NCBI GenBank assembly: GCA_013239625.1
Contig: MU053588.1
Coordinates: 2,242,508-2,306,507, forward strand
Direction of reading: 5' to 3'
Length of the DNA stretch: 64,000 bases
Source of the DNA: Lama guanicoe
Taxonomy: Eukaryota
Positions 3,301 to 63,720 of this stretch are shown in pieces. A model generated the notes under the pieces. It saw only the letters and a program-made list of their open reading frames with translations, was not told where the DNA came from and made no database searches. The stretch's first letter is position 1; each line of letters begins with the position of its first letter. The position numbers and the translations under genes are program-made.

Positions 3301-6300
3301 AAAGCTCTGCCCACCTATTTGACCTTCATTATTCCCTCCCTGAGTGCCTTCTCTAAGCCCAGCCCTATTCTGATCCTGGGAACATGGCAGTAACAGATGT
3401 ACCTCTTGGAGCTCCCAGTACAGAGACAGGCTTCTCACAGGCAGTGTCCTCCCAGACGGGTCAAGACTGGAATGGAGGAAGCCCAAGCACGGGGGTCTAG
3501 GGCCAGGTTGGGGGACCCAACCTGGGGTATCAAGGAAAGTCTCCCAGAGGAGGCGACAACTAATCTGATACCTAGAGGATCTGCAAGAATTAGCAGAAGA
3601 CAGGAGAGGGGTACAGCTTAGGCAATGATCATTTGCTCAACAAATATTTCCCAAGCCCCTAATCTCACCAGCTCTGCAGAGTGGATGCTGAAGATACAGC
3701 TGTGGCTGAGACATCACCCGTGCCTGTCCTCCTAGTCAGTCAATGGGGAGATAGGTTTGTCACCAGAGAGAGTGATGAGGGAAGCCCACGGGACCCTGAG
3801 AGCCTCAAGGAATGCCTGGCACAGTCTGGACAGTCAAGGCAGCATTCCTGGAGGAGGAAACTACCAGCTAAGACCTAAGACTGGGTAGGAAATCAGCAGA
3901 AGGTAGAAGCAACAGCATGTGCAAAGGTTCAGGCAACCTGGAGCTTCAGAATAACTGAATGATCGTCACCAAAACTGGACTCAAGACTTCAGTCTTGGTC
4001 AAGTTCATGTCTATACCAGGACTCTAGTTGGGAGAAAGGGGGAGCTAGGGGGCAGAAAGAGGAGAGACAGGCAGATAGAGGGGTGAGGGACAGGAAAGGA
4101 GACCGGGGAGGGAGGGGGAGTATCTGCAAGTGTCCGTGCCACCTGTGAGTCCTGGGCCACCAGCCCCCTCAGCACTGTCCTCCCTCAGGTCAAGGAGCTG
4201 GGCGTGGTCATGTACAACTGCAGCTGCCTAGCTCGAGACCTGACCAAGATCTTCGAGGCCTACTGGTTCCTGGGCCAGGCAGGCAGCTCCATCCCATCAA
4301 CCTGGCCCCGGCCTTATGACACCCGCTACAATCAAGAGACACCCATGGAAATCTGCCTCAACGGAACCCCTGCTCTGGCCTACCTGGCAGTGAGTCCGAG
4401 GGAAGAGGGACCCATCACACCTCAGCCACATGCCCTCAGTCATGGCCTCCATCTAGCCCTGCTCAGTAATTTGGTGGGAATGGGAGAGTCCTGACCACTA
4501 GCCATCATTCCTGCCCACTCAGGGGCCTGGACTGTGTCCCAACATCTCTAGGCCTTGGTCTCATCTAGGAAGTGGGTATCATAATATTTACAATCTTTTA
4601 GGACTAATGAGGAGAGCCCGTGCAAGGTCGAGCCCTTGGTGTAAGCTACCTATGGCTCTTTCCATTTAAATCTATTTAAATAAAAAGTGGATAAAACTTC
4701 AGTTCTCCAGTCACACTAGCCACATTTCAAGGGCTCAGTAGCCACATGCAGCAAGTGGCTGCCATATTGGGCAGGCAGATAGAGAACATCTCCATCACTG
4801 TGAAAAGTTCTATTGGACAATGCCGACCGTCGCCTGTGGCACTCTGGACAAGGCAGTGCTGTTTTTAGCTGTTGATATTTTCACTAATTAGGGTGGCCAA
4901 CCTGGGTCCCCTTCAGTTCTTCTGAGCAAGTCACCTGGCCAACCCCAGCATCATGGTGGAAGGCCACACTAAGTCACAGATGCAGGGATGACTCATTGGG
5001 GTCATTTGCTCCAGTGGTCTCCCACGGGGGATGAAAGGTTCCCCCATTACCACTTCTGCTTTCAGAGCTTGAGTTTGCTCATCTGTCGTGAGGATGGAGG
5101 GAGCTAGGTGAAGAGCCTGGTGTGGGTGGGCACGTGAGAAGTGCCATCAGGGTGAACTGTGAGCAAGTCAGGGACAAAAGTGACTAGAACGGAGCTCCTC
5201 AAACCTGAGCATGCATTAGAATCACCAGAACGGCTTGTTAAAACCCAGATTCCTGGGCCCCACCCCAGCACCTTGATTCCCTGTGCCATGTGCAGCAAGG
5301 CCCAAGAATCTGCGTTTCTAACAAGTTCCCAGGTGATGCTGTTGCTGCCAGATCAGGGACCTCATGTCGAGAATCGCTGGGTTAAAGCATAAGTTCTGGA
5401 ACCAGACAGCCTAGGTACAAATCCTGTCTCCATCTATCAGCTGTGCAACCTTAGACAAGTCACTTACCCTCTCTGCGCCTCCATTTTCTCACCTCTGTAA
5501 GGGACGTGTTAATTATCTCTCCCCTTTATGGAGGCTGAGCATTCAGTGAGACCCACAGGACCTGGCTCATGACGAGCTGTCTATAACTGGAGTCCACTGT
5601 GACGGCACCCCTGGCAGGACACGTGTCTTGACTGTCCCTTTATCCCCCAGAGTGCGCCTCCACCACTGTGTCCGAGTGGCCGCACCCCAGACTTGAAGGC
5701 CCTGCTCAACGTTGTGGATAATGCCCGGAGTTTCATCTACATCGCGGTCATGAACTACCTGCCCACCATGGAGTTCTCCCACCCGCGCAGGTACTGCTGG
5801 GTGCGTGAACAGGGCTTGGGGAAGGGAGCCACTGCAAGTGAAAGAGGAAGGAGCTGGGAGAAGGGGTGATGGGGCCCAGAAAGCAGGCAGGGGGCCAAGG
5901 CCAAAGGACAGACAGAGGGGGAACCATGGCAAGAGGCAGAGGAGACAGGTGACAGGGAGAGTGGGTCTGGATACTTGAGGTAGGGCAAAGGGAACAGAGG
6001 AAAGGATGAGAATATTGGAGGTGGGGTGGGGGACTGGAGTCTTAAGGCAGAGGATGCAGGATGTGGGATTTCTGGAGGTAGGAGGCAGGAGTTTAAGCTG
6101 GAAATGGGATGAGAGGCTTGGGAGATGGGACTAAGTATTCAGGTTTGGGGCGGCAGGGTTGGGTTCTGTGATCTGGGACGGGAAGTGGGGATGACTGGGC
6201 TCTGGGGGCTCAGAGCAGGTAGTCTGGAGTCAGCAGACAAGATGATGGGAAGATTGGGCTTGCAGCAGCAGGACTGGGAGCCAGAGATGGGGTGGTCTTG

Positions 6301-7393
6301 GAGCCTGGGGGTTCCCAGGCCTGGCTCCCTAAAGCTGAGGTGAGGCCTCCTCTGTGGCCCACACTCCCTTCCCTAAGGTTCTGGCCTGCCATTGACGATG
6401 GGCTGCGGCGGGCTGCCTATGAGCGGGGCGTCAAGGTGCGCCTGCTCATCAGCTGCTGGGGACACTCCGAGCCATCCATGAGGGCCTTTCTGCTGTCCCT
6501 GGCTGCCCTGCGTGACAACCACACCCACTCTGACATCCAGGTGGTAAGCACCTACCCCAGATCCACCCCTCAGCCCCTGTGCAGGGCAGTACTGGGGACA
6601 CAGCTCTCGTGGTGCTCACCTGTCACCCAGAGTGGTCTGTGCCTGGTTGGGGGGCACCATGGATCGGGGCCAGGATTGAGGGAGTGGGCAGAGGGGTCAG
6701 GGCCGGGTTTGGGGAGCCCAGGGGAAGCACCTGCCCAAGTTAAGGTGTCATGGAAGACTTTCTGGAAAAGGAGACATTGGATGTAAGACCTGGGGGAGGA
6801 ATAGGAGCCATTCTAGAGGGAAGAGGTGGCATATGAGGCGACCAGGTCCTCCCCGTCAGTCGGTGTTTACTGAGTACCCACTCCACCTGGCCCTATTCCT
6901 GCCCTCAAGGCCCCGTGGGAAGCAGCCAAGTCCTCAGTCCTGAAGATCTGGTTCCACACCCCATCCTAGACCCTGGGCTCTCTAACCCACCCTGCATCTC
7001 CCCCTTCCCCTCAGAAACTCTTTGTGGTCCCTGCGGATGAGGCCCAGGCTCGAATCCCTTATGCCCGCGTCAACCATAACAAGTACATGGTTACTGAACG
7101 TGCCACCTACATCGGTGAGTGTTCTGAGGGCCGCCGGGGAGACAGAAGGGGGTCCAGGCACCGCCAGGGGCCCTGACTCTCTGCTCCCACACCCCCGCCC
7201 CACAGGAACCTCCAACTGGTCCGGCAGCTACTTCACTGAGACGGCGGGCACCTCTCTGCTGGTGACGCAGAACGGGCGGGGCGGCCTGCGCAGCCAGCTG
7301 GAGGCGGTTTTCCTGAGGGACTGGGACTCCCCTTACAGCCACGACCTCGACACCTCAGCCGACAGCGTGGGCAATGCCTGTCGCCTGCTCTGA
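324..7393 (+). CDS. PLD3: Phospholipase D family member 3 (lysosomal 5'-3' exonuclease), 490 aa, 11 coding exons
   Basis: Join 324-350, 450-524, 613-755, 1221-1404, 2757-2877, 2959-3086, 4189-4389, 5651-5790, 6378-6543, 7015-7114, 7206-7393 = 1473 nt, all introns GT-AG. Starts [13 protein letters not shown], has a TM segment ([17 protein letters not shown]), HTKFWVVD (HKD) and HNKYMVTE (HKE) motifs, and ends NACRLL*. The ATG exon begins at an acceptor at 259; upstream non-coding exons and promoter lie outside the window. Confidence 0.98.
1725..1912 (+). mobile_element. MIR (representative of many MIRs in the window)
   Basis: Core agctgtgtgaccttgggcaagtcac...ctcatctgtagaatggg. Confidence 0.7.
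4650..4825. mobile_element. hAT-Charlie DNA transposon fossil (MER3-like)
   Basis: cagtcacactagccacatttcaag...aaagttctattggaca signature. Confidence 0.65.
5190..5382. mobile_element. MER5A-like DNA transposon fossil
   Basis: ttagaatcacc...cttgttaaaac...gggccccacccc...gaatctgcgtttctaacaagttcccaggtgatgct signature. Confidence 0.7.
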
Positions 7394-8633: not shown

Positions 8634-11600
8634 TCAGTGGTGTCCGCCGACATGCTGCAGAAAGCTAGTGGCCCGGGGTGGACCATGTGGGTGGGTGTGG
8701 CGTGGTGGGAGCCCCTGAGCCCGTGGCCCCCTGATGCCCTCCAGGGTCCACTCTGGCTCATTCAGCCATTCCCCGGAACAGCTGCTGGGGTCGAAGAGCT
8801 CAGGGCCTGGCCTCTGTTGGGGAGAAGAGACGGGCATCAGCGAAGAAGTGCCCCTCACCCCAACCTCCACCAGCCCTGAGGAACAACCAGCCTGCCCCTC
8901 ATGGACTCCTTCTGGTCCCAACTGCATCCTTGTCACTTCCTGAGGACAATTTTGTACATGCTGAACCGTCATCCATTTTGGAGGCTTAAATAATGTGTGC
9001 TGAGACCTTCCTCTGTCCCGAAGGTGTGTTTGCTGAGGGTCTGTCATGTCTTCCTGGGTGGGCGAGCTGTGATGGGCTTGTTGGGAGTACTAGGGCTTTA
9101 TCGCTTCCTGTCTGTGGACTGCTGTGTTCTGAGTTTTTACACAGCGTGAATACAGATTAGTGTTTGCTGAGCTTCCTCACATCCTGAGGGCGGGCCTCAG
9201 ATGCTGGACCCTGTGGCAGGCCATCTAGTTGTGTGGGAGGCAAGGCTGGTTTTACTGTGCTCTGATCCTAGAGCTCTGGGGAGGCCCTGATCCCAGAACC
9301 ACCCGCACCCTGGTTGCCGCCCAGCTCACCTCAACTTCCATGGTCATGTCCTTGATGTCTGGCCCATCCCCCTCCCGCTGCGGGATGGCAGGCGGCTCAG
9401 CGGAGGCCCCTAGGCGCTCTCCTTCAGCCCAGCCACTGCCCCGGCCTGGTGTGTCATCCTCAGGAGAGGCCTGGCTCAGCCAGATCAGGTTGCTGAAGTT
9501 GGAGTCGGACTTGGAGCCTGCGGGTGGCTTGCGGGCTTTGTGGCGGCCTGCCAGGCGGCTGCCATAGAAGGCCAGGATGGGCTCGGGGCCGGGGTCAGAC
9601 ACCCGACGGCCAGCGGCAGCTGCCTTGAGTGGGACCAGCATGTCGGGGACCACATTGGCACGGGTCTCACCCCACAGCTCACACCCTGCCTCCTGTAGAC
9701 TCAGGTCGTCCAGCTGATTGATGGCCCTTTGCATGCCTGGTGCCTTCTCACGGGAAAAAGGCCCGCTGCCCCCCACACTGCCCAGGCCCACAGCCTCCTC
9801 CTCCTCGGCCAGTTGGTAGTAGGGGGGCCCGTCTTCTGCAGCAGCCACCACCGACGTGGGTGGCTTGCCCTCCACCTGCAGAGAGAGGCGGCAGCCGCGC
9901 AGTGAGAGCTGGTAGTAGCGGGTGGTCTCGTGGGCACTGCGCAGCTGCTGCATGGACACGAAGGGGTGGCGCAGGGCTGCGCTGGGGCTGATGCGCTCGT
10001 GCGACTCCCATGTCAGCATGCGCTTAATCAGCTCCACCATGCTCTTGAGGTCGGCATGCTCCGCCAGCACCTCCCGGTCCGGGAAGGTCAGCCGACTGGC
10101 TGCCCCGCCGCCATTCACCGTCTCAATCTGGTCCAGTGACTTGAGCATGTACTTGCGGCGCTCCAGCGGGCGCACCTGGTGGGATGTAAGGTGGGGCAGA
10201 GGTTGACACCGAGTCCAAGCCTTGGGCCCCAGGCACCCCTGCTGTGGGGCCCACTTATGACCCTCCCACCCCAGCTTCCAGTCTGCCCTCCAGTCTGGCC
10301 CAGAGCTCTCTTGTGGCTATGAAGTCCACACACCGGAACCCTGACTTCCAGTGCTGCCCATGATCTGACTTGGCGCTCTCTTGCTGCTGGGAGGACCATA
10401 CCTGCTCACTAACACTAGACACCCTCTAGTCTAATCCACAGCCCTCCTACTGCTGCAGGAAGGACAGCTGACTGTAATCATTTGTTTTACTGTGCCCTGA
10501 TCCTACAGCTCTGGGGAGGCCCTAATCCCAGCACCACCTACACCCTGGCCACCCTCCGGCTCCCCTCTCTCTCTGCTCTCACTGGCTCAAGTTTCACACC
10601 TTGCCCCAGCCCTCCAGTCCCCCCCCCCCACAGGCCGTGGGTCCGGTCCCGAACAGCGGCTAGTAGAAGGGCTGTCCTAACCCTCTAGTCCTCCTTGGAA
10701 TCAGTTCCAGACCCCTCTTGCTTCTGCATCTGATCCCAGCCCTCGAGCCTCCCAGGAGTCAAGCCCAGACCATCTTTGCCAAATTGTTTGACAACCACTG
10801 GCCCAGGAGTTATCAGAGGAGCTGCCATGTACTTTCAGTCCCATCTGTGGTCTCACCCAGACTCCTCTCTTGCTCCCACGGCTGGCCCAAACTTCCAGTC
10901 CTCTCTGCTGTCTCACCCAGACTCTTGCCGCACAAGTTTGATGACCATAGCCACAGAGGTGGCAGACAGGCTGCCCTGACTTCCAGTCTCACCTGGGGTC
11001 TCACTCAGAGCCCTCTTGCTGTGACAGCCCCCGCAGCTGACCCCCAAGCTCCTGGTCCTCTCTGAGATCTAGCCTAGATTTTTTTTCTTGATGTGGCAGC
11101 CCCCACACTGACTGCCCTCCCCGCCCCCCCTGCCCCCCTACCTTGGTCTCAGCCAGGTAGTCAGCCGAGGACTTAAGCTGCCAGGGGTTAGTGGCATCAG
11201 GGTGGGGATTGCGCTTGAAGAAGTGGTGGGCCTTGCGGGCGGCGTGCAGCAGGTGGGGCTTGGGCAGGCCCTGGGTCTCACAGATGTAGCGCACCTGGTC
11301 GTACTCATTGTTGCCCGGGTAGAGGGGCCAGCCCAGGTGCAGCTCAGCCATGATGCAGCCCAGCGACCACACGTCCACCTTCTCACAGAAGGGCAGCCCC
11401 AGCAGAATCTCAGGGGCCCGGTAGAAGCGTGACTGGATGTACGGCTCCTTCACATAGCGCACCTCACTGAATATACTGGCCGAGCCAAAGTCGATCACCT
11501 GAGCAGTGGGGAGGGAGGCACATGGGCCAGGAGGGCCAATCTGAGCCTCCCTTGGCATCTCTCACCAGGGTCTTCCTTCATCAGCCATCTGACTGTCACT

Positions 11601-14426
11601 GCGTCTGTGAGTCTTATCTCTTGTTAATGCTCCTATCCATCTCCTCCAGTCCTTGTCTCTGGTTTGCGTATTTGTCTCTCTGTCTCTGTTTCTCTCCACT
11701 AGAACTTACACCCATGAGGGTCAGGAATCCTCTCTCCTCTCTCACCTCACACTTTAGCCATCAGCCAATCTTGCTGATTCCTCCTGCTGTTCTGCCCACT
11801 CTGCATCCTGAGTTTGTTCACGGCCCCACCCTGATCCTGTCCTCTCATCCCCCTCCTGGACTAATGTAGGGGCCTCCTTGCCAGTTTCCCTGTTTCTCCC
11901 CTCCACCCCCACCTTCCAGTTTGCTCCTCACATGCAGCCCGAGGGTCCCTGTGACCACCTGAGTCAGACAACCTCCCTCCCCTGCGCAGAATCTTCCTGT
12001 GGCTTTACCACATCCTGTGATAAAAGTCTTCACCCGGGCCCACAAGCCTCCAACAATCTGCCCGGTCCCCTTGCCACCCTCACCCTCTCCCACCTTCCCC
12101 CTCACTCACCCAGCTCCAGCCTCCTGGGCCTCTCGCTATTCCCTGAACAAGCCAGACACATTCCCAGCTCAAGGCCTTTGCACTGGCTATTCCCTCTGCC
12201 TGGAATGCTCTTCCTCCAGATGTCCACATGGCTCCCTCTCTCACCTCAACTCTTTACTCAAATGTCACCTTCTCAGGGAAGTCTTTGCTAACCATCCTAT
12301 TAAAAACAGCACAGCCCACCCTTTCTATCCACCCTACTGGCCCTCTGCTTTTCTCCATAGCACTTAACGCCATTTCACATACTATATGCTACCTTTGTAT
12401 GTAGTTCATTGTTTCTCTACTCAACTTGGACATCAGTCCCACGAGGGCAGGGATTTTGTCTGTTCACTGCTGCATCCCTAGATACCTGGACCAGCACCTG
12501 GCACACAGCAGGGGCTCAGGAAAGAGTGAATGAATGGGCTTTTTTACCCCATCATGCTCTTTCTTTCTGTGTCTCCTTTGTCTCTCTCTTTTCTTTCTTT
12601 GCCTCTTCATCACTTGTCTGTCTCTCATCTCTCTCTCTCTCCATCTCTGTGTCACCTCCCTGAAGCCCAGGTTCTATTCTGTCTTCATCATCAAGCACTT
12701 AGTGACACCCCACACTGGCCCTTGGCACATACAGGTGCTGATGAACACCTGTTGCACTAACGTGGTGAATGCCGGAAGGTCCTTGCCTCTCCCGATGCCT
12801 CTCGGGGGAGCAATCTGCCATTTTCACTCTGAATCTCTGTGATCCTGTCTCAGCCCCTCCCTCGGGATCCCTCCTGTAATTTCTCTGCTTCTGATTCAGC
12901 CATCCCTCACCTTCTGTGTACAGAAGGCAGTGTGACAAAATGGTTATTAACCTGGACTCTGAACACAGACAGCTGAGGCCTGAATCTTAGAGAGCTTGAA
13001 TGACCTGATCACTCAGTCCATATTCATGGAATCCCTTCATGCATTCCACAAATGCAGCGGGGAGACCAGCGCTGGCCAGGTGTCATGGATCTGTCCTGTC
13101 TGTCTCCTGCTGTGTTTGTGAGAATCTCTGCTTCATTGAGTCTCTGTCCCTCCACCTATTGGGGCAGAATGATCTCCCTTTTCCTGTCTCAGTATCTCCC
13201 TGTATCTCTGCCATTCATTTAGCACTGACTACACGACAGCAGTAGGCTGGGAGATGCTGAGGAATCAGTGGTGACCTAAATGCTCCTGGCCCTGCCCATA
13301 CTCCTAGTTCAGACCCATCACCAGATAGTAACAAACCCAAAAGCAGACAGAGGGGTCAGAGCCGGAATCGGGGATCCTTGGGACTTGTGACAGCACCAAG
13401 GAGGTGCCTGTGTGCCCGGCAAGGATTCGGAAAAGGTTTGTTGATGAACAAACTCAGGATGATGCCGCCATCCTTCCAGTCGCTAGGGACTGCAGGCTTT
13501 CATCCTCCCTCGAGGGAGGATGAAAGCCTCTCCTCCTCTCTCACACTTCACATAAGATTTACCAGCAAGTCTTGTTCCAAAATCTACCCAGAACTCACCC
13601 ACATCTCCTCTTCTCACTGCCCTGTCACTGGTCCCACCCACCCATGTCTCCCACCTGGCCCACTTCTCAGTCACTCCTCACTGTCTTTCTGCTCCTGCCC
13701 GTTAGCTCAGCTAAGACCTGACAAGGATGGGGAGACCTCAGGTCTTGGAGGGAGACGATGTCAGAATTGGGACAGGGAGATGGGGAGGATTTCAGAGACA
13801 GGAGGTGGGGAGAGGCATCGAGGCCAGGGAGGGAGACCTCAGGGCTGGGAGACAAGTGAGGGACAAGGGAGACTTCAGCGTCAGGAGAGCATCCAGGGCT
13901 GGGGGAATCTGGGAGAGGACAGGAACAAGGGACACTGCCACCCCTGGGCAGCCGCACTCACCTTGACCCTGAAGGGGCAGCGGGTCTGGTCTACCAGCAT
14001 GATGTTCTCAGGCTTGAGATCGGCGTGGATGATGGCCAGCTCCTTGAGCCGGGCCAGGGCTCTGAGCACCTGCAAGGTGACCGTGCGGATGTGACGGACG
14101 GGGAGGGGTGCGAAGTTGTTCTCCTTCTGGAATTCGAAAAGGTTTTGCTCCAGCAGCTCGAAGACCAGGTAGAACTTGAGGGCGTCGTGGAAGAAATCAA
14201 GGAAGCGGATGATGTGGGCCTCCTCCGGGTCCAGGCCCCTCATGCAGCGCAGCAGCTTCAGCTCGTTCTTGATGATGCGGCTGCGGTAGGCGTCGTTCTT
14301 CAGGATCTTGATGGCCACCATCTCGCCAGTACTTCGCCGCCAGCCCTTGGCCACCTCCCCGAAGGTGCCCTTGCCCAACACCTCAATGATGTCGTAGCAG
14401 TCAGTCTCCGACTGGATGGTGGCCAT
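8634..14426 (-). CDS. HIPK4: Homeodomain-interacting protein kinase 4, 615 aa, 4 exons
   Basis: Join complement 14426-13962, 11498-11142, 10175-9330, 8813-8634 = 1848 nt, all GT-AG. Starts [25 protein letters not shown]; kinase motifs [28 protein letters not shown]; ends FLQHVGGHH*. Confidence 0.97.
11900..12540 (+). mobile_element. L2 3' fragment in HIPK4 intron 1 (representative of many L2 relics)
   Basis: ggcctttgcactggctattccctctgcctggaatgctcttcc...cagcacctggcacacag...gtgaatgaatg terminus. Confidence 0.65.
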
Positions 14427-16850
14427 GGTGCCCCTGTCGCCGGACACTGCCCTGTCAACACCCCTGCCCCACGGGCTCTGCCTCCGGAGCCTCCTGCCCC
14501 GACGCCGGCTCTGAGGCTCCCCCAGTGGCGGAAAGAGAACCGCGCTCGTCCCTTGCCCTGTGAGGTTCACCCCTGCCTCCCTGGCAACCCCCAGACCTCT
14601 GGGCCACACAGCGAGTCTGCCAGGGGCTGCACCCCTCCCCCGAAGCCCTCCTGGCTTGGGATGAGGGGCCCCAGGCCCCCCAGAATGGGTTCCAGTGTTG
14701 CTGAGTGGCTCTGGTTCTGTTGTTGGAGACCCTCGGCCCTCGCTGGAATCGGGGGTGGGGTGGCAAGTAGTGCCCCCTCCCCCATCCAGGGGCGGAACAC
14801 TGGAGAGGCTGGACAGGTGAAGGGGAGGAGAGTCTGATTGTGGACGTAGGGCAGAGAGGAATGGGACATTCCCAAACATGTGGGGAGAGACTGTCTTCCT
14901 GAGCTAGAGGATTTGTGTGTGTGTCTCTGCTCAGAAAACACCTGCCTCTGCCTGTGGCTGCTATGGGGTAGGTCTGACTGATATGGGACCAGGTTGCAAA
15001 AGGTCTTGAATGCCAGGCAAAGGAGCTTGGACTTTGTTCTGAGGGCAGTGGGGAGCCACAAAATGACTTTGAGCAAGGGAGGGCAGGGTCAGATGGGAGT
15101 GTCAAAGCTACTGTGTGAAGAAGAGTGGATTCGAGGAGGCAAGAGTGGAGGCCCAGAGCTTGCAGCAGGCTCAGGTGGGAGAAGTTGGCGGAGGTGGGGG
15201 ACGAGGCAGGTGGACGAGACACTCAGGAGGCCAGGAAGACAGGCCCTGCAACTGGCAGGTATAGGGGAAAAGAGGGAGCCGTGCAGGATAAGGCTCTGGC
15301 CTGGGTAACGATGGGATGGTTTCTTGAGACGTGAATAGGAATGGGGAGCAGTTTGGGGAAGAGGATGTTAGGAAATTTACATTGAAACATTTAAACACAT
15401 GTTGAGGGCTTTAGAAGTCTTATCTGATCCTTACAACATACATCTTAATATTGCCATTTTATAGAAGAGAAAAGAGGCAAAAAAATGTTTAAATGCCTAA
15501 AGTCACCCAGCTGGGTGCCAGAGGCAGGTTTTGACGCTGAGCCGTCTGGCTTTAGAGCCAAGCTCTGAACCACCACCTCACACAACCTCCTAGTATCCAG
15601 GAGACATCAGGGGGTGTGTGCAGAGGCCACTAGATGCCCCTGTGGACCCAGGAGAGAATCTGGGAACTGTCAGCACAGAAATGAGGTCTGGGAGCCATGG
15701 GGAGGGTGACATGACCCAGGGAGGGTGTGGGTGTGGAGGGCCTGGGAGGAGCCCTGAGGGCCCAAAGGGTGTGAGGCGGAGAGAGAAGGAGGGAAGAGAG
15801 AGAAAAGAGAGTTTTGGAAGGAGGAAGGAGCCCTGAGAAGTCAGGACACAGGAGAGAGAAGCCCTGAGAGCTCATCAAGCCCACGGACAGATCAGCGGTG
15901 GTGAGAGGAAAAGCCCAAATGCTGGGAGCCTGGGCAGAGGGTGGACACGAGGAATGTAGGTCACTCCTGCCATGTTTGGTAGGGATAAAGAGGAACATGT
16001 GATGGGGGAGTGACCTAAGGGGGGCCGGCTTGAAGGGAGAAGGTGCTGGAGTAAGTGGGGCGTCTGTGACCACTTAGGGCACAGCACACCCTTTAGAGCG
16101 GGAAGATGGAGATGTGATGAGAGTGGAGGGGAAGCTATCAGGGGCCTCAGAGGAGATGTGGGGCTAGAGAGCTTGTCTAGGGCATCTCAGAGAGACATGG
16201 GGGATGCTGGGGCTTAGATTCTGAGTGGGGATGGGTCCCTGGGGACTGAGGCCCAGCCCCAGTAGGAGCTGCAGACCCTGGGACTTAGTCCCAAAAGGCA
16301 GCCAGGTGTCTGGGGTGGAGGTTCTGACCCCATAATCCTGGAGAGGGGATCAGGAGGAGCCTTCCTGGGTGGGGCTGGGGTGAACCGGGCAGTCCAACCA
16401 GCCAGACAGGAAAGGGATGGGCCAGGATGCAGAAGTGCTCTTGGAGGTGGCGAGGTGGCCAGCAGAGGGCAGGTACGGAGCAATTGTATGCCGCTCTCTT
16501 AGGGCTCCTGGGGTAATCCTGGCAGGAGTGGGTCACCCAGGACAGGCAGAGTCCCGGGCAGAGGGGTCCTACAGCTGTGCTCTGCTGAGGAACTTCCTGG
16601 CTCAGAGGACCCTGCGGGAATCCTGAAGGGCTAGGGCAGTCCCTCCCACCAGGCCCACCCCAGGGCCTCCTTGATTCTCCTCAGACCAGGGGTGGCCTGC
16701 TTCCCTGTGCACAGGATCCCCTCAGGCCAAGTCCCCCCTCCTTAGGAACTCTATCTGCACTCGCTCCCCCCCCGCCCCCTCCACTGTCCCCTGTCCCCCC
16801 AGTAAACACACTCACAGAGGAGACCTGACCCAACGCTACCTCTGGATTAT

Positions 16851-17030: not shown

Positions 17031-26636
<9,606 letters not shown>

Positions 26637-26860
26637 GGCACTGCTGGGAGTCACCTGGGCCCCAGGCTCCTGCTTCCTCTCTCCCTTCTGCTGCAGGACC
26701 AGCTTCAGTTCTGCATGGAGCAGCTGCCTCTGAGCCTGCAGGGGCAGGGATGGAGGCTTGAGGCCAGGAGAGCATGAGGGGAAAAGGCCAGGCTTCAAGG
26801 GAGAGGTCATGGTGGGTATGAGAAAGGGAGAAGGGCCCCCCATCCCATCTGTCCTCTCAC

Positions 26861-26959
26861 CGCTGCCTGGGCACCAGCAGCCCCTCCTAACTGAAGCCCA
26901 GCCTGGGATGCCGCACAGTCGTCTGTGGGCCTGGCGCCCTTCCTCTGGGGTCTTGCTGC
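26861..26959 (-). other. PRX: PRX upstream exon 3 (99 nt; 5'UTR in the canonical form, open in frame)
   Basis: Acceptor tctctccctggcag| at 26960-26961 and donor GCG|gtgag; reads AARPQRKGARPTDDCAASQAGLQLGGAAGAQAA. Confidence 0.75.
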
Positions 26960-27042
26960 CTGCCAGGGAGAGACCAGGTCGTGAGGCTCCAGGTGGGCCC
27001 GGGAGGGGTAGGGAGGGGCATGTGGCACCAGCCAGTGCTCAC

Positions 27043-27086
27043 CTCAGGGTCACCTCCAGCTCCTTGGGCCTCCTGGGTCCCGGGCT
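27043..27086 (-). other. PRX: PRX upstream exon 2 (44 nt)
   Basis: Acceptor ttattcttcttag| and donor GAG|gtgagc; reads (E)PGTQEAQGAGGDPE in frame with the downstream exons. Confidence 0.75.
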
Positions 27087-27429
27087 CTAAGAAGAATAAT
27101 GTGAGCATTACTGTCAGCTGACCCCGCTGCTGGCTTCCTGAGTGCCTGACCCTTCCTGCACTCTGTCAGTGCTCTATCCCTATAGTGCATATAGGGAAAC
27201 GGAGGCTCAGAAGACCTTTATCCAAGGTGACATGGCTGGACCACAAACCTCATAGCCAGAACTGACTCCTAGGCCTGTCTGACAGCAGAGCCCCAACACC
27301 AACAACCTCGGCTGACCCAGGGGGCCAAATTCACTATGAAATCATTATAATCACTGCCATGTACTCCCTGTGAGCAAAACACCTCACCTCTCGGTGCCTC
27401 AGTTTCCTCATCTATAAAGTGGGGAGGCA

Positions 27430-27592
27430 GAAGAGGGTAGAGCTTAGTGGTAGAAGGCATGTTTAACAAGCATAGTGTCCTGGGTTCAATCCCCAGTACT
27501 TCTACTAACAAACAAACAAAAGAAAACTCGAATGGATGGATGGATGGATGGATGAATGGATGAATGAATGAATGAATGAATGAATGAATGAA

Positions 27593-27631
<39 letters not shown>

Positions 27632-27633
27632 AA
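27430..27633 (+). mobile_element. tRNA-derived SINE copy with compound microsatellite tail, inserted in a MIR
   Basis: A and B boxes, then (ATGG)n(ATGA)n(ATAA)n. Confidence 0.8.
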
Positions 27634-30630
27634 AGGGGAGAATGAGAGCACCCACCTCACTGTGCTGCTGGGAGGGTCAAGTGCATCTGTAAATATAAAG
27701 GGCCGGGCACAGGGCAGGCGCTTCGTAACTGCTTGATATGATTATTACTAAGAACATCCTGTGGTGCTGACCTTGTGTTGAACATCCCACAAAGGTCATG
27801 GCATGTGGTCCTCAGAACACCCTTGTGAGGTCAATACCACAATTGAGCCCATTACAGAGACACCTGAGGCTACAAGAAGGGCAGTCACTTGCCTGGGTCA
27901 CAAATGGCCAAGCCAGGACTTGAACTTGTCTGAAAGCTCCAGCCACTTACATGGATAATCATATCTAATGGGCATTGAGTGGTGACTCTTTGCCAGTCCT
28001 GTGCTAAGACCTTCAATTTCCACCCCAACGCAGAAAACCCTAGCCCCTCAGAGAGGCCAAGAATCTTGCTCAAGGTCACACAGCACAGAGAGAAGGAGGC
28101 AGAGCTGGATTCAGGTTCAGCCTCTCCAACAGGTCCTTCTGGGAGAAAGAGAATGGAGACTGTCTCTCTCCGCTACCTACTTCCTGGTCTCTGGCCTTGT
28201 CCTCCCGGCCCCCACGGGGCATGCCAACCCGCCAACCCCGAGTCCACAGAGAAAGGTCAGGCCTCACGCGGCACATTCCCTCAAACAATGGCCCATCTGC
28301 TGTGCCCAGTCACATTCCGCCGCTGCCCACCCATCCCCAGCTGCACAATGGCCCTTCATAGCCCACCACGGGCCAGGATAGAGGACACAGGGACCCCCTC
28401 AATGCTCCAGCCATACCCACTCCACTAGTTGCCTGCCCCCCACCATTGTCAGAGGGTGCCTCTCTGGCTCTCCTAGAGGTCCTGGTCTTCATGTCCTTCC
28501 CTCGCCTCCTCTATGAGTCCCCAGCCCCTCCAAGTAGGGTTGGCTCCCACATCTGGGTTATTTCCTCTGAACTGGGCCCTATGCTGGCACCATTAAGCCC
28601 CAAAATCACCCTGGATGTGGTGGCTGTTTTAGGGTTGGAAATAGGCTCAGAGAGGGGAGGTGACCTGTCTGGGATTACACAGCTGGGACCCATGCCCTTG
28701 ACCCCAACTTTGCACCTTAACTTGCTTTGGTGGCTTTGAGGACTGCAGGAGCCCCAAACAGCAAAATAGCCAGGGCAGGAGTTGGGCTGGGCAGAAGGTG
28801 CCAGAAACAGGCATTTTTAGAGGGACCTCCTTGGTGCCAACCTGAGGCCAGGCGGCACTTTACAGATGTGGCCTCATAGTACCCCATTTAACTGAAGAGT
28901 AAATGAAGGTTAAGAGTATCACAGTGACCGAGTCAGGACTTGAACCTAGGTCTGAAAAACTGAGTCCCTGGCATAGTGTAGCATCCTGAGCTGGGGGTGA
29001 GAGAAGTCTGGTACTTGTAGGAGGTGGTGGAGGTGCAGGGGAGGATTTCCTGGGCCACAAGCTCCCTGTTCCAGGACAGGCCAGAGACGGTCACACCCAG
29101 AGGCTAGCACAGGAAGTCTAACCCGGGGTGGGGGCAAGAGAGAGTGACCTCCTTCTTCATCCCTGCCCGGGACAGCTGCCCAGCCCAGGTTATATTTAGC
29201 CCAACTGTGCCCTTCCTGAGAGACGTACCCAGCTCCTGGGGTGGAGTCAGGTGGGGTGGGGTGGGGGCAGCTTCGGAAGGAAGCCCCCCGCCCCAAACCC
29301 CGGGAACTCTGTGTTCCCAGCTCTGCCTGTCCCACTAGGCAGGGGAAGGAGGGGTGGGGAGAGGTGCCCAGGGTAGGGGATGGTTCCTGATTTGTTTTAG
29401 AGGAAGATCTAATGGGGCCTCCCTGATGAATCAAGGCCAGGCGGGACCCTCCAGAGCCCAACAGCCTATTTCTTGGCTCTGTCCTGGTATATTCCTGAGC
29501 TTCCAGAATTCTGAAAGTCCCCATTTCTTGAGAACTTACTATGTGCAAAGATCCTTCCCTGTCTTGACTCATTAAACACTTACTACACCTCTCTGGGGAG
29601 GGCACAACTTAGATGCCTGCTAAAGATGTCACTCACACCCTTCAGGATGTCTGCGATGAGGGGTTGTCATTTGTGCCTTGGGCCCTTCAGCAGAGCTCAG
29701 CCTGCCGAGGACTCCCCCAGCTTTGCCTCACTGCACTGTCTTTCCCCATGGCTGGTGCCAACCTCATTTAGGAATTCTCCCCACTCAGAGCCTCAGCCCC
29801 CGAATCACCAGTGATCTGGTGCTCTTAGCGATGGGAGGGGGTGTTGATCTGACTCATCTGGGCCCCTAGACATGATCTGAGGAGGGGGAGGTTTTTGGCA
29901 GTGGCCTCCAGCTGCCTCAGTGAGTCCCTTCTCCAGCACTTCTCAAGTATGAATACTCAGGCAAGATATTTAACTTCTCAGTGTCTCAGTTTCTTCATCT
30001 GTAAAATGGAGCCAACAAGAGTGGCTTTGAGGATTTGAGAGATAACAGCAGGTGTTTAGAATATTTCCAGTATACAGTAAGTGCTCAAGTAATAGGAAAT
30101 AATCTCTGACAGCAAGAGGGGAGGGGGTCTATGCATCTCAAAGTGTCTCATGCCCAGCCTTGCTCACAGTGGCCCCACTTTCTCCTCTACCCAAGAGGAC
30201 CTTTGGGTGAGGGACAAAATCCAGCTCAAGCACCAGCCTCCTACCAACAGGATTAGCGTTGCCTCCCCAGCAGTTTAGTCCACAGATCAAAAAAAGCCTG
30301 TCCCACCGTAGGCATCCTGCCCCAGCTCTCTCCAAGCAGCAACCACTTAGTCTCGCATCAGCCCTGTGAGGTAGCTTCCATCAGCCCATTTTATAGATGG
30401 GAAAGCAAAGGCACAAAGGGTGAAGAATCTTGCCCAAGGCTACATAGTCAGAAAGAGAAGAATGCTGGGATTTGAATCCAGGGTCTGGCTCCAAAGTCTG
30501 TGCCTTTAACTCCTACCCAACTCTGCCTCCTGAGCCCCAGGCAGCCTCCCAGCACCTCCCAGGATCCTGGGTCTCATTTCTGCGGCTTCTCAGCCTGGCC
30601 AGGAAGGGAACTGGCCAGCTGATCTCTTAC

Positions 30631-30690
30631 CACTGGGCCTCCAGACACCTCGAGAGCTCCCCGTCCGTCTGCTCAGCCCCAGCCCCAGGC
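30631..30690 (-). other. PRX: Probable canonical non-coding first exon of PRX (5' end approximate)
   Basis: Strong donor GTG|gtaag at 30631/30630, no ATG in the exon, G-rich promoter-like sequence upstream. Confidence 0.5.
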
Positions 30691-31706
30691 TGGGGGGGAA
30701 AAGGAACGGGGAGGGGGAGGAGGGGGAGACCCCAGCCATTGGCTGCCGAGGCATGACATCACCAGGGAGTGGGTGGTGGGGAAACAAACATCCCCCTCTC
30801 CTAGCTACATCCACTCGCAAGAGGGTGGGAGCCACAGAAGAGAAGCTGAGACAGCCGCTGCTCCTGTGCCTGGGCTGAGACCTCCACCAGGAGCCCCACA
30901 CTCCTGGGATCTGCACATTGCTGGTGCCACTTCGAGACTCACCCCACCAGCACTATCTCCTTGTTTCCAGACCCAGGTGTGGCCCTACTCTTTCCTGGGG
31001 CCCCTAAAATAAACTCCTTCCACTCCTTCTCCCCGTCAGTTTGGGTTCAAATCCCAGCTCAGCCATGTCCTAGCTGTGTGACCTTCGGCAAGTCACAGCA
31101 TCTTTCTGGGTCTGTTTCTTCATTTCTAAAACAGGGAGGATAAAAGTGCACACCTCATGGGTTTGTTGTGAAGATAAAATGAGTTAAGAGGCTAAAATCT
31201 TTAAAAAGCGCCTGGCACAGACTGAATGCTACTCATAACTATTTTGTATTATTCACACAAAGTAGAGAACCAGCTAGACTTGTCAGAGGACTTTTGGCCT
31301 GAGTGGGACTGGGCACAGGGGAGCCCCACTTCTCTGTTTAATGAAGTTGCATTTTGGGGGACACCTATCACATACTAAATACTGTGCTGGGCCCCCAAAG
31401 CTCGGCTCCGGGAATTAAGGATGCAAGAGAGAAAGATTATGCCCAGTTTTTAGCTACACAGACAGAAGGTGGTGGAGCTGGGGTCCAACTCCAGTTCTGT
31501 TGGACCCCAAAGACCCTGCAACACTCTTCTGTCCCCTTGATATAACAGATAAGGAGGCTCAGAGAAGGTAATGACACCCAAGGACATCCATAGCACGTAA
31601 TTGGTAGCACAAGGATTTGAACCCAGACCTGCCCAACTCCCAAACCAAGGCCACCAGGCCTCACCCTGATCCCCTGGCCCCCGACCCCCAGCCTGCCCTG
31701 ACTCAC

Positions 31707-31749
31707 CAGACCCCGGGGGGCGGCACAGGGAGCACAAGTACCCCCACAT
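31707..31749 (-). CDS. PRX: Candidate alternative coding first exon of PRX (MWGYLCSLCRPPGS-G)
   Basis: ATG at 31749 with G at -3, 43 nt to a consensus donor CTG|gtgagt; phase 1 matches the 44-nt exon exactly. Confidence 0.65.
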
Positions 31750-32262
31750 GCCCCTCACACCCACCCGGCTGCTGCCTCGGATGCTCCTGGCTCTCTGAGT
31801 TGGGGCCTGGGGCCGGGGCTGGGATGAGGTCGGGGATTACCTCCAAAATGCACGTCAGCAGCTTCTGCCCCATTGCTTAGCCTGGTGCAGCCACCAGGCC
31901 CTCACCTCAATCCGCACCCTCGCCCCTCACATCAACTCTGCTCGCCCCTCTGTGGCCCCCTCCCCATCCCCCTCCTGAGCATTTGGGGCCTACTCCCAAG
32001 GGCGCAGGGGACCAGGAACTGGTTGGCAGGACCCCAGAATGCTAGGGGACTCCTCCCTTCTCTCTGAAATGCCCCCTGCCCACTCTCAGCCACTGGGGAA
32101 GGCAGGAATGTGCTGAGCTCTGGAAACTGCCTTCCAGGACTGGCAGCCAGCAAGGACTGGGGTGTGGCCGGAACCCAGCCAGAACCCTCCTCCTGGGAGG
32201 GGTGGAAGGGACAGTGTGGTCAGGGTAGCTGATGGGACTGAGGAGACCTTCCCCCTATTGTA

Positions 32263-32264
<2 letters not shown>

Positions 32265-32306
<42 letters not shown>
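32265..32306. repeat. (CT)n microsatellite
   Basis: About 20 perfect CT units. Confidence 0.95.
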
Positions 32307-32309
<3 letters not shown>

Positions 32310-35300
32310 ATTGATTGATTCAAACATTCATCTGTTCATTTATTCATTCAACATTCACAGGTCCTTGATGGCAGGCCTTTGGCTGGGCACTGGGGACACT
32401 GACAGAGCTAAATCACTATGGGGGGGCAGGTTCAGGACAGGATTTCTGGAGGAGATGACATCTGAAGTCAAACTGGAGAGCTGAGGAGGAAGGAGCTGGG
32501 TACAAACGCAGGGAAGAGGCTTCCAGGCGGGGGTGGGGGGGAGGTACACGGACAAAGTATCAGAGCGGAGAGAGGGAGCAGTACTTCATCCAGTGTCAGC
32601 AAACAGTTAATGAGCACCTGGATGGTGGTGGATGGTGCTGGGGACACAATGTGACCAAGATAGCCCGGGGCTGCTTTTACAGAGTTCACAGTCCAACAGG
32701 GAGCCAGACTCAGAGTGGCCAGGTTTGTGATGGGGGAATCTCAGGCAGAGAGGTCAGGACCTTGCTGGGGAAGCCCAGGAAAGGTAGCTGCTTCAACTGA
32801 GGAAGGGAGGTCGGGGAAGTCTTCCTGGAGGAGGGGACATGTGAGCTGAGAATTGAGTGGCCCACAGGAACCAGGCAAGCGAAGAGGGAGTGGAACAGCT
32901 TTATGGGCAGAAGGAACAGCCTGTGCAAAGGCTCTGAATCCAGACAGAGCTCAACACATAGGAAATTTCCATGAGCTGAGAACTGTGTCCTTGCTCGTGG
33001 CTATGTCCCTAGGGCCACAAGTGCCCCTTCCTTTGTATCTCCTCATTTATACATTTATTCACCGGTTATTCACAGACACCTCCGCTGTAATCATCCTTGG
33101 GCTGAGCAGTGCTGGGGACACAGCAGTGACTATGATGGTGCCTTCACAGAACTCACAGTCCAAGGGGGGTCAGATGTTAAAGAAGCAATCAACAAAACGA
33201 GAGTATAATTACACACTGAGCTAAGAGCTATGAGAAACAGAACCAGATCTATAAGAGGGGCCTGGCACATTGATATTATCAGAAAGAGCAAGGAGGGCTT
33301 CTTGGAGGAGGTAACATTTGAGCTGGCACCTGAAGGATACATAGGAGTTCATGCTGGTGGTGGATAAATGAGAGTAGGTTGCAGGGTGAGGAGAAGCAGT
33401 GGGGAGGGCCATAGTCAGCAAGGCCCTGAGGAGGGGCTGAGACTTTGTCCTGAGAGCCCTGGGTACTTCCAGGAGGGACAATCAGAGCTGAGTTTTAAGT
33501 ATTTGAGGGGGAAAGAGTCTGACTACAGGCGAGGCTAGAGCCGGGAGGAAAATTCACCCCTCTCTGCTCAGGGTCCAACAGACAAGGAGGCTGTTACAGG
33601 CTCTCCTGTCTCTCTCCGTGTATCAGAGGACAGATATCCTTGCTGGTTCCCAATCTTTGGGGACAAGCATTCAGTCTTTTGTCAGGAAGTAAGATGTTAA
33701 CTGTACATTTTTTGCAGCTGCCCTCTAGCAGGTGCAGGAAGCTTCCTTTCCGAGTTTGCTGTGAGCTTTCTGTGGTGAATGATGTGTTTCCCTCTCTGTC
33801 TCTGTGTCTCTGTGTCCTTATTCCTTGTCTCTCTCTCTGTCCGTGTCTCTGTCTCATTCTCTCTGTGTCTGTTTCTCTCTTTTTCTGTCTCTCTCTCTAT
33901 CTCTTGCTTGTCCTCACCCTAGGAGGTGTGGCCACGGGAAGCTGAGTTTAGAGGGTGGCACCAGTGTCCCGGTTCCGGCCAAAGCCACCTCAATAAACAC
34001 AGGACGTCCTGCAGGGCTGGGGAAGGAGGTGGAAAGCTCTCCTCAGGGACCACCCTCTCCTCACCCAGTTGGAGCCGAGCAGGAACCGGGTTCCACCCAG
34101 TGCAGCCCAGGGAAACTGGTATCTCCCTCACCCCTGTCCTTTACACCTGTTCCTGCCCCCTGTCCTCTCTAGTGAGCTCCCGGTCCCAGGGGCCCAGCAG
34201 CCTACATGCCTTCCCCTGGGTGTCCCCCCAGCCCCTGGCACCCACTGTGTCCCTTTCTGGCCTCAGTGTCAACACGAGACCTGCTCCTCTTCCGGGCCAC
34301 CATCCCAACATGGCCCCACCATCCCCAAGTTACCTGGCTAGAGCCCTGGGTCTTGTCCTAGGCCCCTCCTCCACTGCACCTCATCACCCTACAGCCTGTC
34401 CTCTCCAGCATCTCTCATGTCCCCTCCACTCTTCAAGGCTGCTCTGTCCCTCCCTGGCCTCCCCTCTGGGCTCCTGGCCTCCAGTCTCACTCTCTCACCA
34501 CCACATCCACATGGCAGCCAGAGAGACCCATTTACTTCTAGATTCCTTTACCCTACTGCCTTCAGAGGAAAGTCCCCATCCTTGTGTGCCCTGGCCCCTG
34601 CCAACGCCTCCAGCTCCATCACTTCCCTTACTGCAGTTTCTCTCTTTCCAATCAAACCCAGCAGCTTACAGATCCCTGAAAAGATTGTAGGATCCCTCAC
34701 TTTCTAACTCTTGCACCTGCTGTTCCCTCTGCCTAGAACACTCTCCCCTCAGAACAACAACCCTCTGAGGTGGGTACTGTTACTGTCCCAGCTTACAGAT
34801 GAGGACCCTGAGGCCCAGAGAAATTAAGTATCTGGCCAAGAGTCACACAGCCACAAAATGGCAAAGCAAAGGTTCAAATGCAGGTGGTCTGGCTTTCAAC
34901 ACAATCTCTCTTTATTGAGTCAATAATCATTGACTAAGTGTCATTAGGTTTCCGCACCAGGACTGCAGACTGCAGGTGTTCAGTAAATGTTCACTGAATG
35001 AGTGAATGGAACGGGGCGGAAGGTGAGGGTTCAGATCCCCGAGGACCAGGATAAACTCTGAGGACCCAGAGCAAGGGAGAGATGTGGTCAGATTTGCCTT
35101 TGGGTAGGTACCCATGATTCTTTGCTGAATGAGGGAAGGAAAGGAGGGAGGAGGGAGAAGGAGACCAAGGACATCTCTCCCAGGTGATGGAGGAGAGAAG
35201 TGTTTGTGTGATGGTCCCTGTGAATGCCCATGGAGGGGAGCTAGCCTGGCGAGTGTCGTAATGGGAACACAGAGAGGCTCTGTGAAAAGCAGCAGCAGCA

Positions 35301-37660: not shown

Positions 37661-38377
37661 TCAGCGCCCTGGCCCTGGTGGCCGCTCCAGTGCCTGTGTG
37701 CCCACCAGCACGTCCATGAGGTAGTCCAGCTCGGCCTCATCCAGCTCTGGAGCTTCCTCCTTGCCTGGCCCATCCTCAGGGCTGGGTTTGTGGCCCTCAG
37801 AGACTGGTGCCCAAAATTCACTGTCATACATGGAGGTGTCAATGTCCTCGAATAGGCCCTCGAGCCCATCGTCCAGCAGACAGCCAGTGGCTGGGCCCAG
37901 CAGGTCCAAGGCACCCAGGCTGGGTGGGGCTGCCCCACTGGGGCGGCCTGGCGGCCCCTCGTCTACCAAGGGTTGGGGGGCCTGGCTCAGGCCCTCAATA
38001 TGGCTGAGGTCCTCCAGGAGGCTGGCCATGGAGGCTGAGAGTGCGGCGTCCGAGCTGGCCAGCAGGTTATCAGCTATGCCAGGGGCTGTAGGTGGGCTGG
38101 GCACAGGCGGCAGGGTAGCTGCTGGTGCCATGGATGCCTGGATTCGCCGCAGTGTGTTCACTACCAGCACCAGGTGCCGCAGGTCTGGCTCACTCTGCCG
38201 CAGGCTGTGGTGGAGCTTGAGCACTGAAAGGTCAAAGAGGGAACTGGAGGCCACAGCCGGGGGTGCTTGTGCCACTGCTGGGTGGCCAGGTTCCAGCCAC
38301 CAGGCGTCAACTGCCAGGGCTTCCTTCTCCTCCTCCTCCTCCTCCCGCTTGCGCTTCAGGCCCTTGCTCAGCATCAT
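37661..38377 (-). CDS. SERTAD1: SERTA domain-containing protein 1 (TRIP-Br1/SEI-1), single coding exon
   Basis: Acceptor ccccacag| immediately before ATGATG (38377; second ATG 38374). MLSKGLKRKREEEE..., SERTA domain SLFDLSVLKLHHSLRQSEPDLRHLVLVVNTLRRIQ, C-terminal ELDYLMDVLVG. Confidence 0.96.
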   Translation of the reverse strand: MMLSKGLKRKREEEEEEKEALAVDAWWLEPGHPAVAQAPPAVASSSLFDLSVLKLHHSLRQSEPDLRHLVLVVNTLRRIQASMAPAATLPPVPSPPTAPGIADNLLASSDAALSASMASLLEDLSHIEGLSQAPQPLVDEGPPGRPSGAAPPSLGALDLLGPATGCLLDDGLEGLFEDIDTSMYDSEFWAPVSEGHKPSPEDGPGKEEAPELDEAELDYLMDVLVGTQALERPPGPGR

Positions 38378-39479
38378 CTGTGGGGAGCGAGAAGTCATTC
38401 AGTTATGGAAAGCCAATGTGAAGTTCTGATGCCTGTGTGATCTTGGGCAAATCACTTAGCCTCTCTGAGCCTAGGCTTTCTTAGGGAAACTTTTGAGAGC
38501 TGAATGATAATTGTATCTATTTCATAAAGTTGTTGGAAGGAATAAATGAGATAATATACAAAAAGCACTTTACAACGGTGTCTGGTACATAGCAATTACT
38601 CCTATGAATAAGTATTATTCATAATAACTATGATTATTTATTTCTTCAATGAACCATGTGAAATGTCCAATATTTAACCTTTTTTTAACCTACAAAAGCA
38701 GCTGTTTCATATGGTTTAATCTAATATTTATTGACTGTCTAATTGTATCAGACAGTAAATAAATAAACAATTACAGGAAATGTACAGATGGTGCTAGGAA
38801 GATACTAAAAGGTTCTGGAGAGTCGTTAGGGAAGGCTCCTCTGAGGAGGTGACATTTGAACTGAGCCCTCAAGTACGAGAAGGAATCAGCCAGGGAGGAA
38901 CTGGGGGGAGGCATTCTGGGAATAAAGAACGACGGCAAAGGCAAAGAGACCTAGAGGCTTGATGAGCTTGAACTGAAAAAAGACTCCATGGTCAGTGCAC
39001 AGAGCGACACAGTATGGGGTGAGGGGGCAAGTTCGAGAGTAGGCAGAGGCGAGGAACTTGGATTTTAAGCAGGAAGGAATGCGGTGTTGTGGACTGGTTA
39101 GGTTTCCAGAATATCCCCTTGGCTGTTACGAGGAAGTGGGGAAGGTTGTTGGGAAGGTGGGGAGATCCATTCTGAGGCTACTGCACTCTGGGGTGGGCGA
39201 TGGTGGAGACTTGGGAGTATAAAATAGTAGTGGACATGGAAGGAAGTTGGATTTAGGATTTATTTGCGAAGCAGAGTGGACAGAGCTTGCCGGAAAATCC
39301 TGATGGGCACGGGGGTCAATGAGAGAAGTTTGAGGACCCACTTTTCCCGGGGCGGGTGCCCCTGGCCCAATCTGCTTTTTAAAAGACAGACAGCCTGCAG
39401 GGCACAGTACCTAGACCCTTGCCCAGTAGGACATTTGGAGTGACCCTTCTCACTACTCAAAACTGGGTCTCCCCTCCTT

Positions 39480-51537: not shown

Positions 51538-63720
<12,183 letters not shown>

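Follow-up and report, generated by a model that had tools for sequence, protein, structure and literature searches.

A conserved coding N-terminal extension of periaxin with a predicted cysteine anchor, seen from the PRX locus of Lama guanicoe

Introduction

PRX, which codes for periaxin, a PDZ-domain scaffold protein of myelin and lens, is a disease gene, associated with CMT4F (the 4F type of Charcot-Marie-Tooth disease), Dejerine-Sottas disease and dominant congenital cataract. The protein is described as L and S forms only in the available portions of three papers (PMC12617670, PMC12460658 and PMC7072810), the last of which places the link in the PDZ domain and in a region of the tail when relating periaxin to AHNAK2, a protein encoded by at least seven exons according to the accessible sections of a review (PMC10682155). 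In the human PRX mRNA the ATG is located in exon 4, and L-PRX is found at the membrane in the lens, as stated in the same portion of PMC12617670. In endothelial cells, short-start L-PRX with GFP fused to its N-terminus localized mainly to nuclei, and very little of it reached the membrane (PMC6030167, available part). Several PDZ scaffolds (PSD-95, SAP97, PSD-93, GRIP1b and GRIP2b) have variants with N-terminal cysteines, as summarized in the accessible part of PMC6365469.

In this work, we analyzed a window of 64,000 nucleotides (nt) of Lama guanicoe (GCA_013239625.1, MU053588.1:2,242,508-2,306,507), which holds the PRX locus on its minus strand. An initial annotation of this window had proposed that exons considered as 5′ untranslated region (UTR) of PRX code for 95 additional amino acids (aa) in front of the usual MEARSRSAE start. 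We consider it very probable that this is a conserved, real coding N-terminal extension of periaxin, a claim that was borne out by conservation across jawed vertebrates and not by the chance argument, drawn from a single genome, on which it had been founded.

Exon Structure and Open Frame

The four exons of the extension had been described exactly as regards coordinates, AG/GT splice signals and translation. Exon 1a, the coding part of the distal first exon (31707..31749, minus strand, as are all PRX features below; 43 nt), is composed of an ATG, 14 codons in all plus one nucleotide, and a GTGAGT donor in phase 1; it encodes the MWGYLCSLC start, with cysteines C6 and C9, and there are in-frame stops upstream of its ATG. 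Exon 2 (27043..27086, 44 nt, phase 1 to 0) encodes residues 15-29, and exon 3 (26861..26959, 99 nt) is a symmetric cassette (phase 0-0) that encodes the least conserved part, a linker, and whose skipping yields a 62-aa extension. Exon 4 (26610..26735, 126 nt) contributes 33 extension codons, among which lies the helix motif QRQLLHAELKLVLQQK (26685..26732, residues 64-79), followed by the canonical ATG at 26636. The proposal that 285 nt (95 codons) are open across these exons, in frame with MEARSRSAE, was confirmed: once the exons are joined, stops interrupt frames 1 and 2 but not frame 0, and the extension amounts to 95 aa (9.7 kDa). The 31707>27086 junction is a predicted one, drawn from its splice signals and from the annotated proteins of other species.

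Adding exon 5 (24363..24519, phase 0 to 1) and exon 6 (21471..21667), which encode the first and second halves of the PDZ domain, respectively, and exon 7 (17031..20861, the large last coding exon of L-periaxin) produces a seven-exon model of 1498 aa without stops. If the intron after exon 6 is read through, the frame ends at 21408 and the product is S-periaxin, which with the extension has 242 aa, a form that is annotated in Sturnira (P0016). The PDZ domain of the bat orthologue matches PF00595 and PDB 4CMZ, and the locus has the N-terminal periaxin-type PDZ domain, the big last exon and the S form made by intron retention that identify PRX orthologues.

The argument that 95 open codons would be unlikely in a neutral UTR did not hold, since the sequence has a GC content of 67% and 8.9% of 20,000 mononucleotide shuffles are open; when the first intron was scanned in overlapping stretches of 285 nt, 201 of 4326 were open as well. 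Exon 4 contains, in addition, a three-codon out-of-frame upstream open reading frame (ATG CAG AAC TGA, 26716-26705, minus strand), 80 nt above the short start, whose ATG (26716) overlaps the codon for the invariant His of the helix.

The Extension in Placental Mammals

With exon 4 (42 aa) as query, 53 proteins were retrieved among 57 candidates, and those named by their source are periaxin or else unnamed or hypothetical. MWGYL begins 25 of the 56 mammalian entries (21 with 95 extra residues, two with 62, one with 96 and one with 92); counting cluster members, there are 31 entries with this start (26 with 95 aa, three with 62, one with 96 and one with 92), plus two caprine entries that start with MWEYL and have 96 aa. 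The extension-bearing set, made of gene models that are not mutually independent, covers about 27 placental species of Laurasiatheria, Euarchontoglires and Afrotheria, and all its length variants (92, 95, 96 and 62 aa) preserve the frame. Mean identity to the window over 21 database entries was 0.94, 0.82, 0.69 and 0.90 for exons 1 to 4, the value of 0.94 for the cysteine exon deriving in part from selection on MWGYL, which does not include C6 and C9. These two cysteines are kept in 22/22 aligned mammalian sequences while adjacent residues vary, residues 63-77 are invariant in the same 22, and C44 is kept in 14 only.

Annotated proteins that lack exon 3 exist in Equus, Desmodus, Lacerta and Paroedura. 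The horse annotation holds the +95, +62 and short forms together, and the two lizards likewise have three annotated forms, the full one, one in which the spacer is skipped (with 31 and 35 aa fewer) and the short one; in macaque, the X1 and X2 proteins differ by 95 aa and 9.8 kDa. The suspicion that the isoform was under-studied rather than new proved right, as a human UniProt entry of 164.79 kDa, A0A669KBF1, exists; we take it to be the +95 form, which its mass fits. In the accessible part of a proteomics supplement on human nerve, this entry stands ahead of Q9BXM0 within one protein group (PMC13490253).

Counterparts in Other Vertebrates and the Helix

HMMER, run in full with the bat form of 242 aa as query, gave 479 matches at E up to 0.001, of which 150 were listed, and a further search for counterparts gave six matches of 155 candidates. 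Among the matches listed, counterparts of the extension are present in Lacerta, Podarcis, Paroedura, Lerista, the turtle Pelodiscus and two frogs, as well as in Danio (zebrafish), Gambusia, an eel, a sturgeon and the little skate. They share a layout composed of a start like MCECFARVF, MCECLRGIF or MCDYLHGLC, a variable spacer and then QKEKLHAELKxVLxxK. In an alignment of eight sequences from mammals to fish, the only invariant columns were Q64, L68, H69, E71, L72, K73, V75, L76 and K79, and among 38 distinct motif strings, at positions left free in the search pattern, Q was found in 37, V in 36, L in 38 and K in 37.

Some fish entries are labelled AHNAK-like. In a PDZ tree of 28 rows, built without an outgroup because a genome search for AHNAK gave unrelated PDZ matches only, the 14 helix-bearing rows all fall on one side of a branch (97/93). 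Searching 189 proteins for this motif and for RPQGSSP, a motif that sits in exon 3 of AHNAK2, gave 62 with the helix only, 40 with RPQGSSP only, none with both and 87 with neither. On these comparisons, the predicted QxxxLHxELKxVLxxK helix is specific to the periaxin clade.

The amphipathic helix proposed in the initial annotation shows a conservation that extends from skate to mammals, with a hydrophobic moment that is only moderate (0.35-0.49). An AlphaFold2 model of the 242-aa bat form, made with eight sequences, suggested a helix at 56-84 with low confidence (mean pLDDT of 42). Neither exon 4 nor the extension had a match in Pfam, PDB or the ESM Atlas, weak evidence of absence given that these queries are short. 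The helix, with its invariant His and Glu, would likely bind a partner specific to periaxin.

Relationship with AHNAK2

The AHNAK2 gene of the same genome (G000:C9058:477454-496225) was modelled from splice signals and agreement with matching proteins. It is composed of exons of 55, 59, 99, 96, 142 and 185 nt plus a large exon, with phases 1,0,0,0,1,0, and PRX has exons of 43, 44, 99, 126, 157 and 197 nt plus a large exon, with the same phases 1,0,0,0,1,0. The upstream phases 1,0,0 would match by chance with a probability of about 0.07, calculated from phase frequencies that we presume. Exon 1 of AHNAK2 starts with MCDC, and its cysteine pair is C2/C4. When the six distinct non-mammalian periaxin starts were scored against AHNAK2 starts, only 0-4 of 1257 peptides from ATGs of the window scored as high, and this applies to all six. 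The placental first exon resembles only the skate start, with 3 of the 1257 null peptides scoring as high. The matching exon number and phases, the 99-nt exon 3 and the similarity of the non-mammalian first exons indicate that the extension is likely the ancestral N-terminus common to PRX and AHNAK2, and the textbook periaxin is likely a shortened form produced from a second promoter. The initial annotation had noted neither this likely homology with the start of AHNAK2 nor that exon 3 can be skipped.

On the side of AHNAK2 itself, its MC start and RPQGSSP are kept from elephant shark to mammals, and the two in-frame acceptors of its exon 5 are separated by 9 nt. Starts with MC can be oxygen-sensitive N-degrons.

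The Cysteine Pair and Membrane Location

All entries of the three start-motif groups (25/25, 16/16 and 26/26) have at least two cysteines in their first ten residues; since the groups were picked by start motif, this is to some extent a given in the two MC groups. Among the null peptides, 74 of 1257 have two. The spacing of the pair varies (CxC, CxxC or Cx6C). Its conservation within the first residues, beside hydrophobic ones, coincides with what characterizes the S-acylated variants of PDZ proteins, and S-acylation of C6/C9 is predicted to anchor long periaxin to the membrane. The nuclear location of GFP-L-PRX, compared with the membrane location of the protein in lens, is consistent with such an anchor, in an indirect way.

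Promoters, Alternative First Exons and Locus Context

A proximal first exon, exon 1b (30631..30690, with an approximate 5′ end), is likely non-coding; its donor lies after 30631, which corrects the boundary of the 30.6 kb exon in the initial annotation. Above it, a CCAAT-box match (30736..30744) contains an in-frame ATG at 30739 of a type used by some gene models; these matches are commonplace in the window (five found, 11 expected). This ATG was rejected as main start, and so was an in-frame intron ATG at 27108 (minus strand, just above exon 2), both being likely by-products of gene modelling. The ATG at 27108 yields MLTLFFLE, with which several database models of lynx, rhino and ruminants begin, and could otherwise be a third start site. 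Felid models (P0005, P0007, P0261 and P0268) use another first exon, with a MCNDPC start, 104 extra residues and two cysteines in the first six. No start of the MC[DE][CY] type was found on the minus strand of the window between 27087 and 40500. A two-promoter toggle is consistent with the long and short forms annotated together in macaque, horse and lizards.

Candidate motifs of the distal promoter, TGCTGACGT and TAATCC, lie about 85-110 nt above the distal ATG (31834..31860), and we take them to be Maf/CRE-like and bicoid-type, respectively. TGCTGACGT is unique in the window, with 0.15 occurrences expected, a weak signal since the motif was chosen post hoc and 10-14 of 100 shuffles match. 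The Maf/CRE-like site together with TAATCC gives only a hint of use in lens.

Intron 1 has a MEF2-like site (29190-29199) in a GC-rich possible enhancer, one of six window matches to what we take as the MEF2 consensus, and a compound TTTA/TTCA/TCCA microsatellite at about 27520-27640; a GA repeat lies above the distal promoter (32265-32310). The neighbours of PRX in the window, named presumptively from their open reading frames, are PLD3-like (6223-6786, plus strand), HIPK4-like (9252-14903, minus), SERTAD1-like (37661-38398, minus), SERTAD3-like (46390-47034, minus) and BLVRB-like (56319-56786, minus).

Discussion

We lean towards an explanation in which the extension works as an S-acylation anchor under the control of a promoter switch. 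Promoter 1a would give rise to long periaxin (+95 or +62 aa), and promoter 1b to an mRNA with no translation of exons 2-4 before MEARS, the textbook protein start. The cysteine pair, placed beside W, Y, L and L, would be acylated by ZDHHC enzymes and would keep the PDZ dimer at the membrane, not free for cytosol and nucleus; the helix would fold upon binding a periaxin-specific partner, and exon 3 would set the length of the spacer between anchor and helix.

Several observations weigh against this explanation or against the coding extension that it presupposes. With G at -3 and T at +4, the distal ATG has a moderate context, against a strong one at the short start. All the orthologues are gene models that were retrieved through the extension itself, so that species lacking it would be invisible, and the extension sequences retrieved do not include human, mouse, rat, xenarthrans, marsupials or monotremes; the wallaby and echidna entries begin at the short Met, these two and the coelacanth entry starting at or near it and being uninformative on their upstream exons. 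The remaining 31 of the 56 mammalian entries are fragments, read through an intron or begin with another first exon, and the model of the porcupine (Erethizon dorsatum, P0039) follows the +1 frame through exons 1-3 before it returns to the usual frame in exon 4, possibly through a frame break in exon 3. In the human proteomics data, the row with A0A669KBF1 and Q9BXM0 is a shared group without peptide-level assignment. The placental first exon of the window scores poorly against AHNAK2 starts (671 of 1257 null peptides as high) and against the mean non-mammalian start (116 of 1257); it may be a fast-changed homologue, or a replacement exon that regained two cysteines. As regards acylation, mouse Ahnak2 showed no hydroxylamine enrichment at the protein level (ratio of 1.2, adjusted p of 0.41) in the available part of PMC12874130, neither PRX nor AHNAK2 was found in the S-acyl dataset supplements of PMC10337253, and the main text of a bovine lens palmitoylome (PMC6266727), the part covered here, makes no mention of periaxin.

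These S-acyl datasets, none of which, in the parts covered, supported periaxin or AHNAK2, favour the idea that the extension is made and functional with a cysteine pair that is not acylated and would be instead a redox or metal site, or part of a hydrophobic helix touching the membrane, the main function being binding or self-association through LHxELKxVL. That the helix is the deepest-conserved element also agrees with it. On the other hand, the spacing of the cysteines shifts by lineage while their count stays at two, which would fit acylation better than a fixed metal site, and they lie within the first ten residues, as in PSD-95-type anchors; we judge this alternative unlikely, while leaving it a real weight. 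A quite different possibility is that the mammalian extension is a relic, with exons 2-4 being UTR held by splicing or RNA constraint and the long models arising from projection and rare transcripts. The literature, in the portions available, describes just L- and S-periaxin from one promoter, an open frame has a 5-9% chance alone, and protein searches suffer from the ascertainment bias mentioned above, to which the porcupine model can be added. This is nevertheless very improbable in view of the changes in extension length, which all keep the frame, of helix amino acids that are invariant from skate to mammals and of C6/C9, present in every one of the 22 mammalian sequences while their neighbours vary.

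Little probability is also left for a helix that comes mostly from the proximal promoter, through the ATG at 30739 or a near-cognate CTG or ACG in exon 1b, which would give a helix-bearing periaxin without the cysteine anchor. Exon 1b is in phase 1 too and is open from that ATG, and Lemur and Felis models have 117-122 extra residues; against this, the ATG falls within the CCAAT-box match and probably lies above the start site, exon 1b is translated in a different frame in the Apodemus model (P0053), and the non-mammalian forms begin with the cysteine exon. Returning to the acylated long form, a broader scheme, which we find doubtful as a whole and offer as tentative, would see in it both the ancestral form of the protein in jawed vertebrates and the one that predominates in lens fibres and endothelium, produced from a Maf/Pitx-type distal promoter, with an undescribed binding helix kept for more than 400 million years and the textbook protein as its shortened form. 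Retention of intron 6 might then produce a 242-aa membrane-anchored PDZ-only periaxin, a possible dominant negative behind the dominant cataract without neuropathy of intron 6 splice variants, and variants in the PRX 5′UTR would be coding.

If the long form is made, the constructs used so far have lacked the predicted anchor and the most deeply conserved N-terminal motif outside the PDZ domain, variant calling has to treat 285 nt of “UTR” as coding sequence, and the route of periaxin to membranes in lens and endothelium can be tested with a single cysteine mutant. The homology of PRX and AHNAK2 probably reaches beyond the PDZ domain and takes in the 5′ layout of the genes as a whole. The surprise is limited, since the isoform is already in databases.

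Comparison with Known Systems

The literature search, judged from listings and of incomplete coverage, found no paper on the periaxin extension, and the available part of PMC5505122 contains nothing on periaxin isoforms. The isoform is known as annotation; within that coverage, no published account was found of its age, of its agreement with the layout of AHNAK2, of the helix or of the likely anchor. The annotated long isoforms (RefSeq models X1/X2 of many mammals) have the same start, 95 residues and junctions as the form described here, with no difference at the sequence level; they are annotation without an assigned function.

AHNAK2 is alike in its seven coding exons with phases 1,0,0,0,1,0, its 99-nt exon 3, its first exon with a cysteine pair and its related PDZ domain. 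It differs in having RPQGSSP in exon 3 and no LHxELK helix, the reverse of periaxin; in the placental protein, moreover, residue 2 is W and the cysteine pair is shifted. The variants of the PSD-95 alpha and GRIP1b type (PMC6365469, accessible part) resemble long periaxin in carrying an alternative N-terminus with early cysteines on a PDZ scaffold, and by analogy the long form may act as do those N-terminal variants of PSD-95 or GRIP1 that are palmitoylated. No sequence homology with them is claimed, acylation of periaxin is a prediction, the alternative in periaxin is a plain truncation, not another domain, and it is four PRX exons that would switch between coding and UTR. Canonical L- and S-periaxin, finally, come from the same gene and have the same PDZ domain and tail as the long form, but they start at MEARS, without the cysteine pair and the helix.

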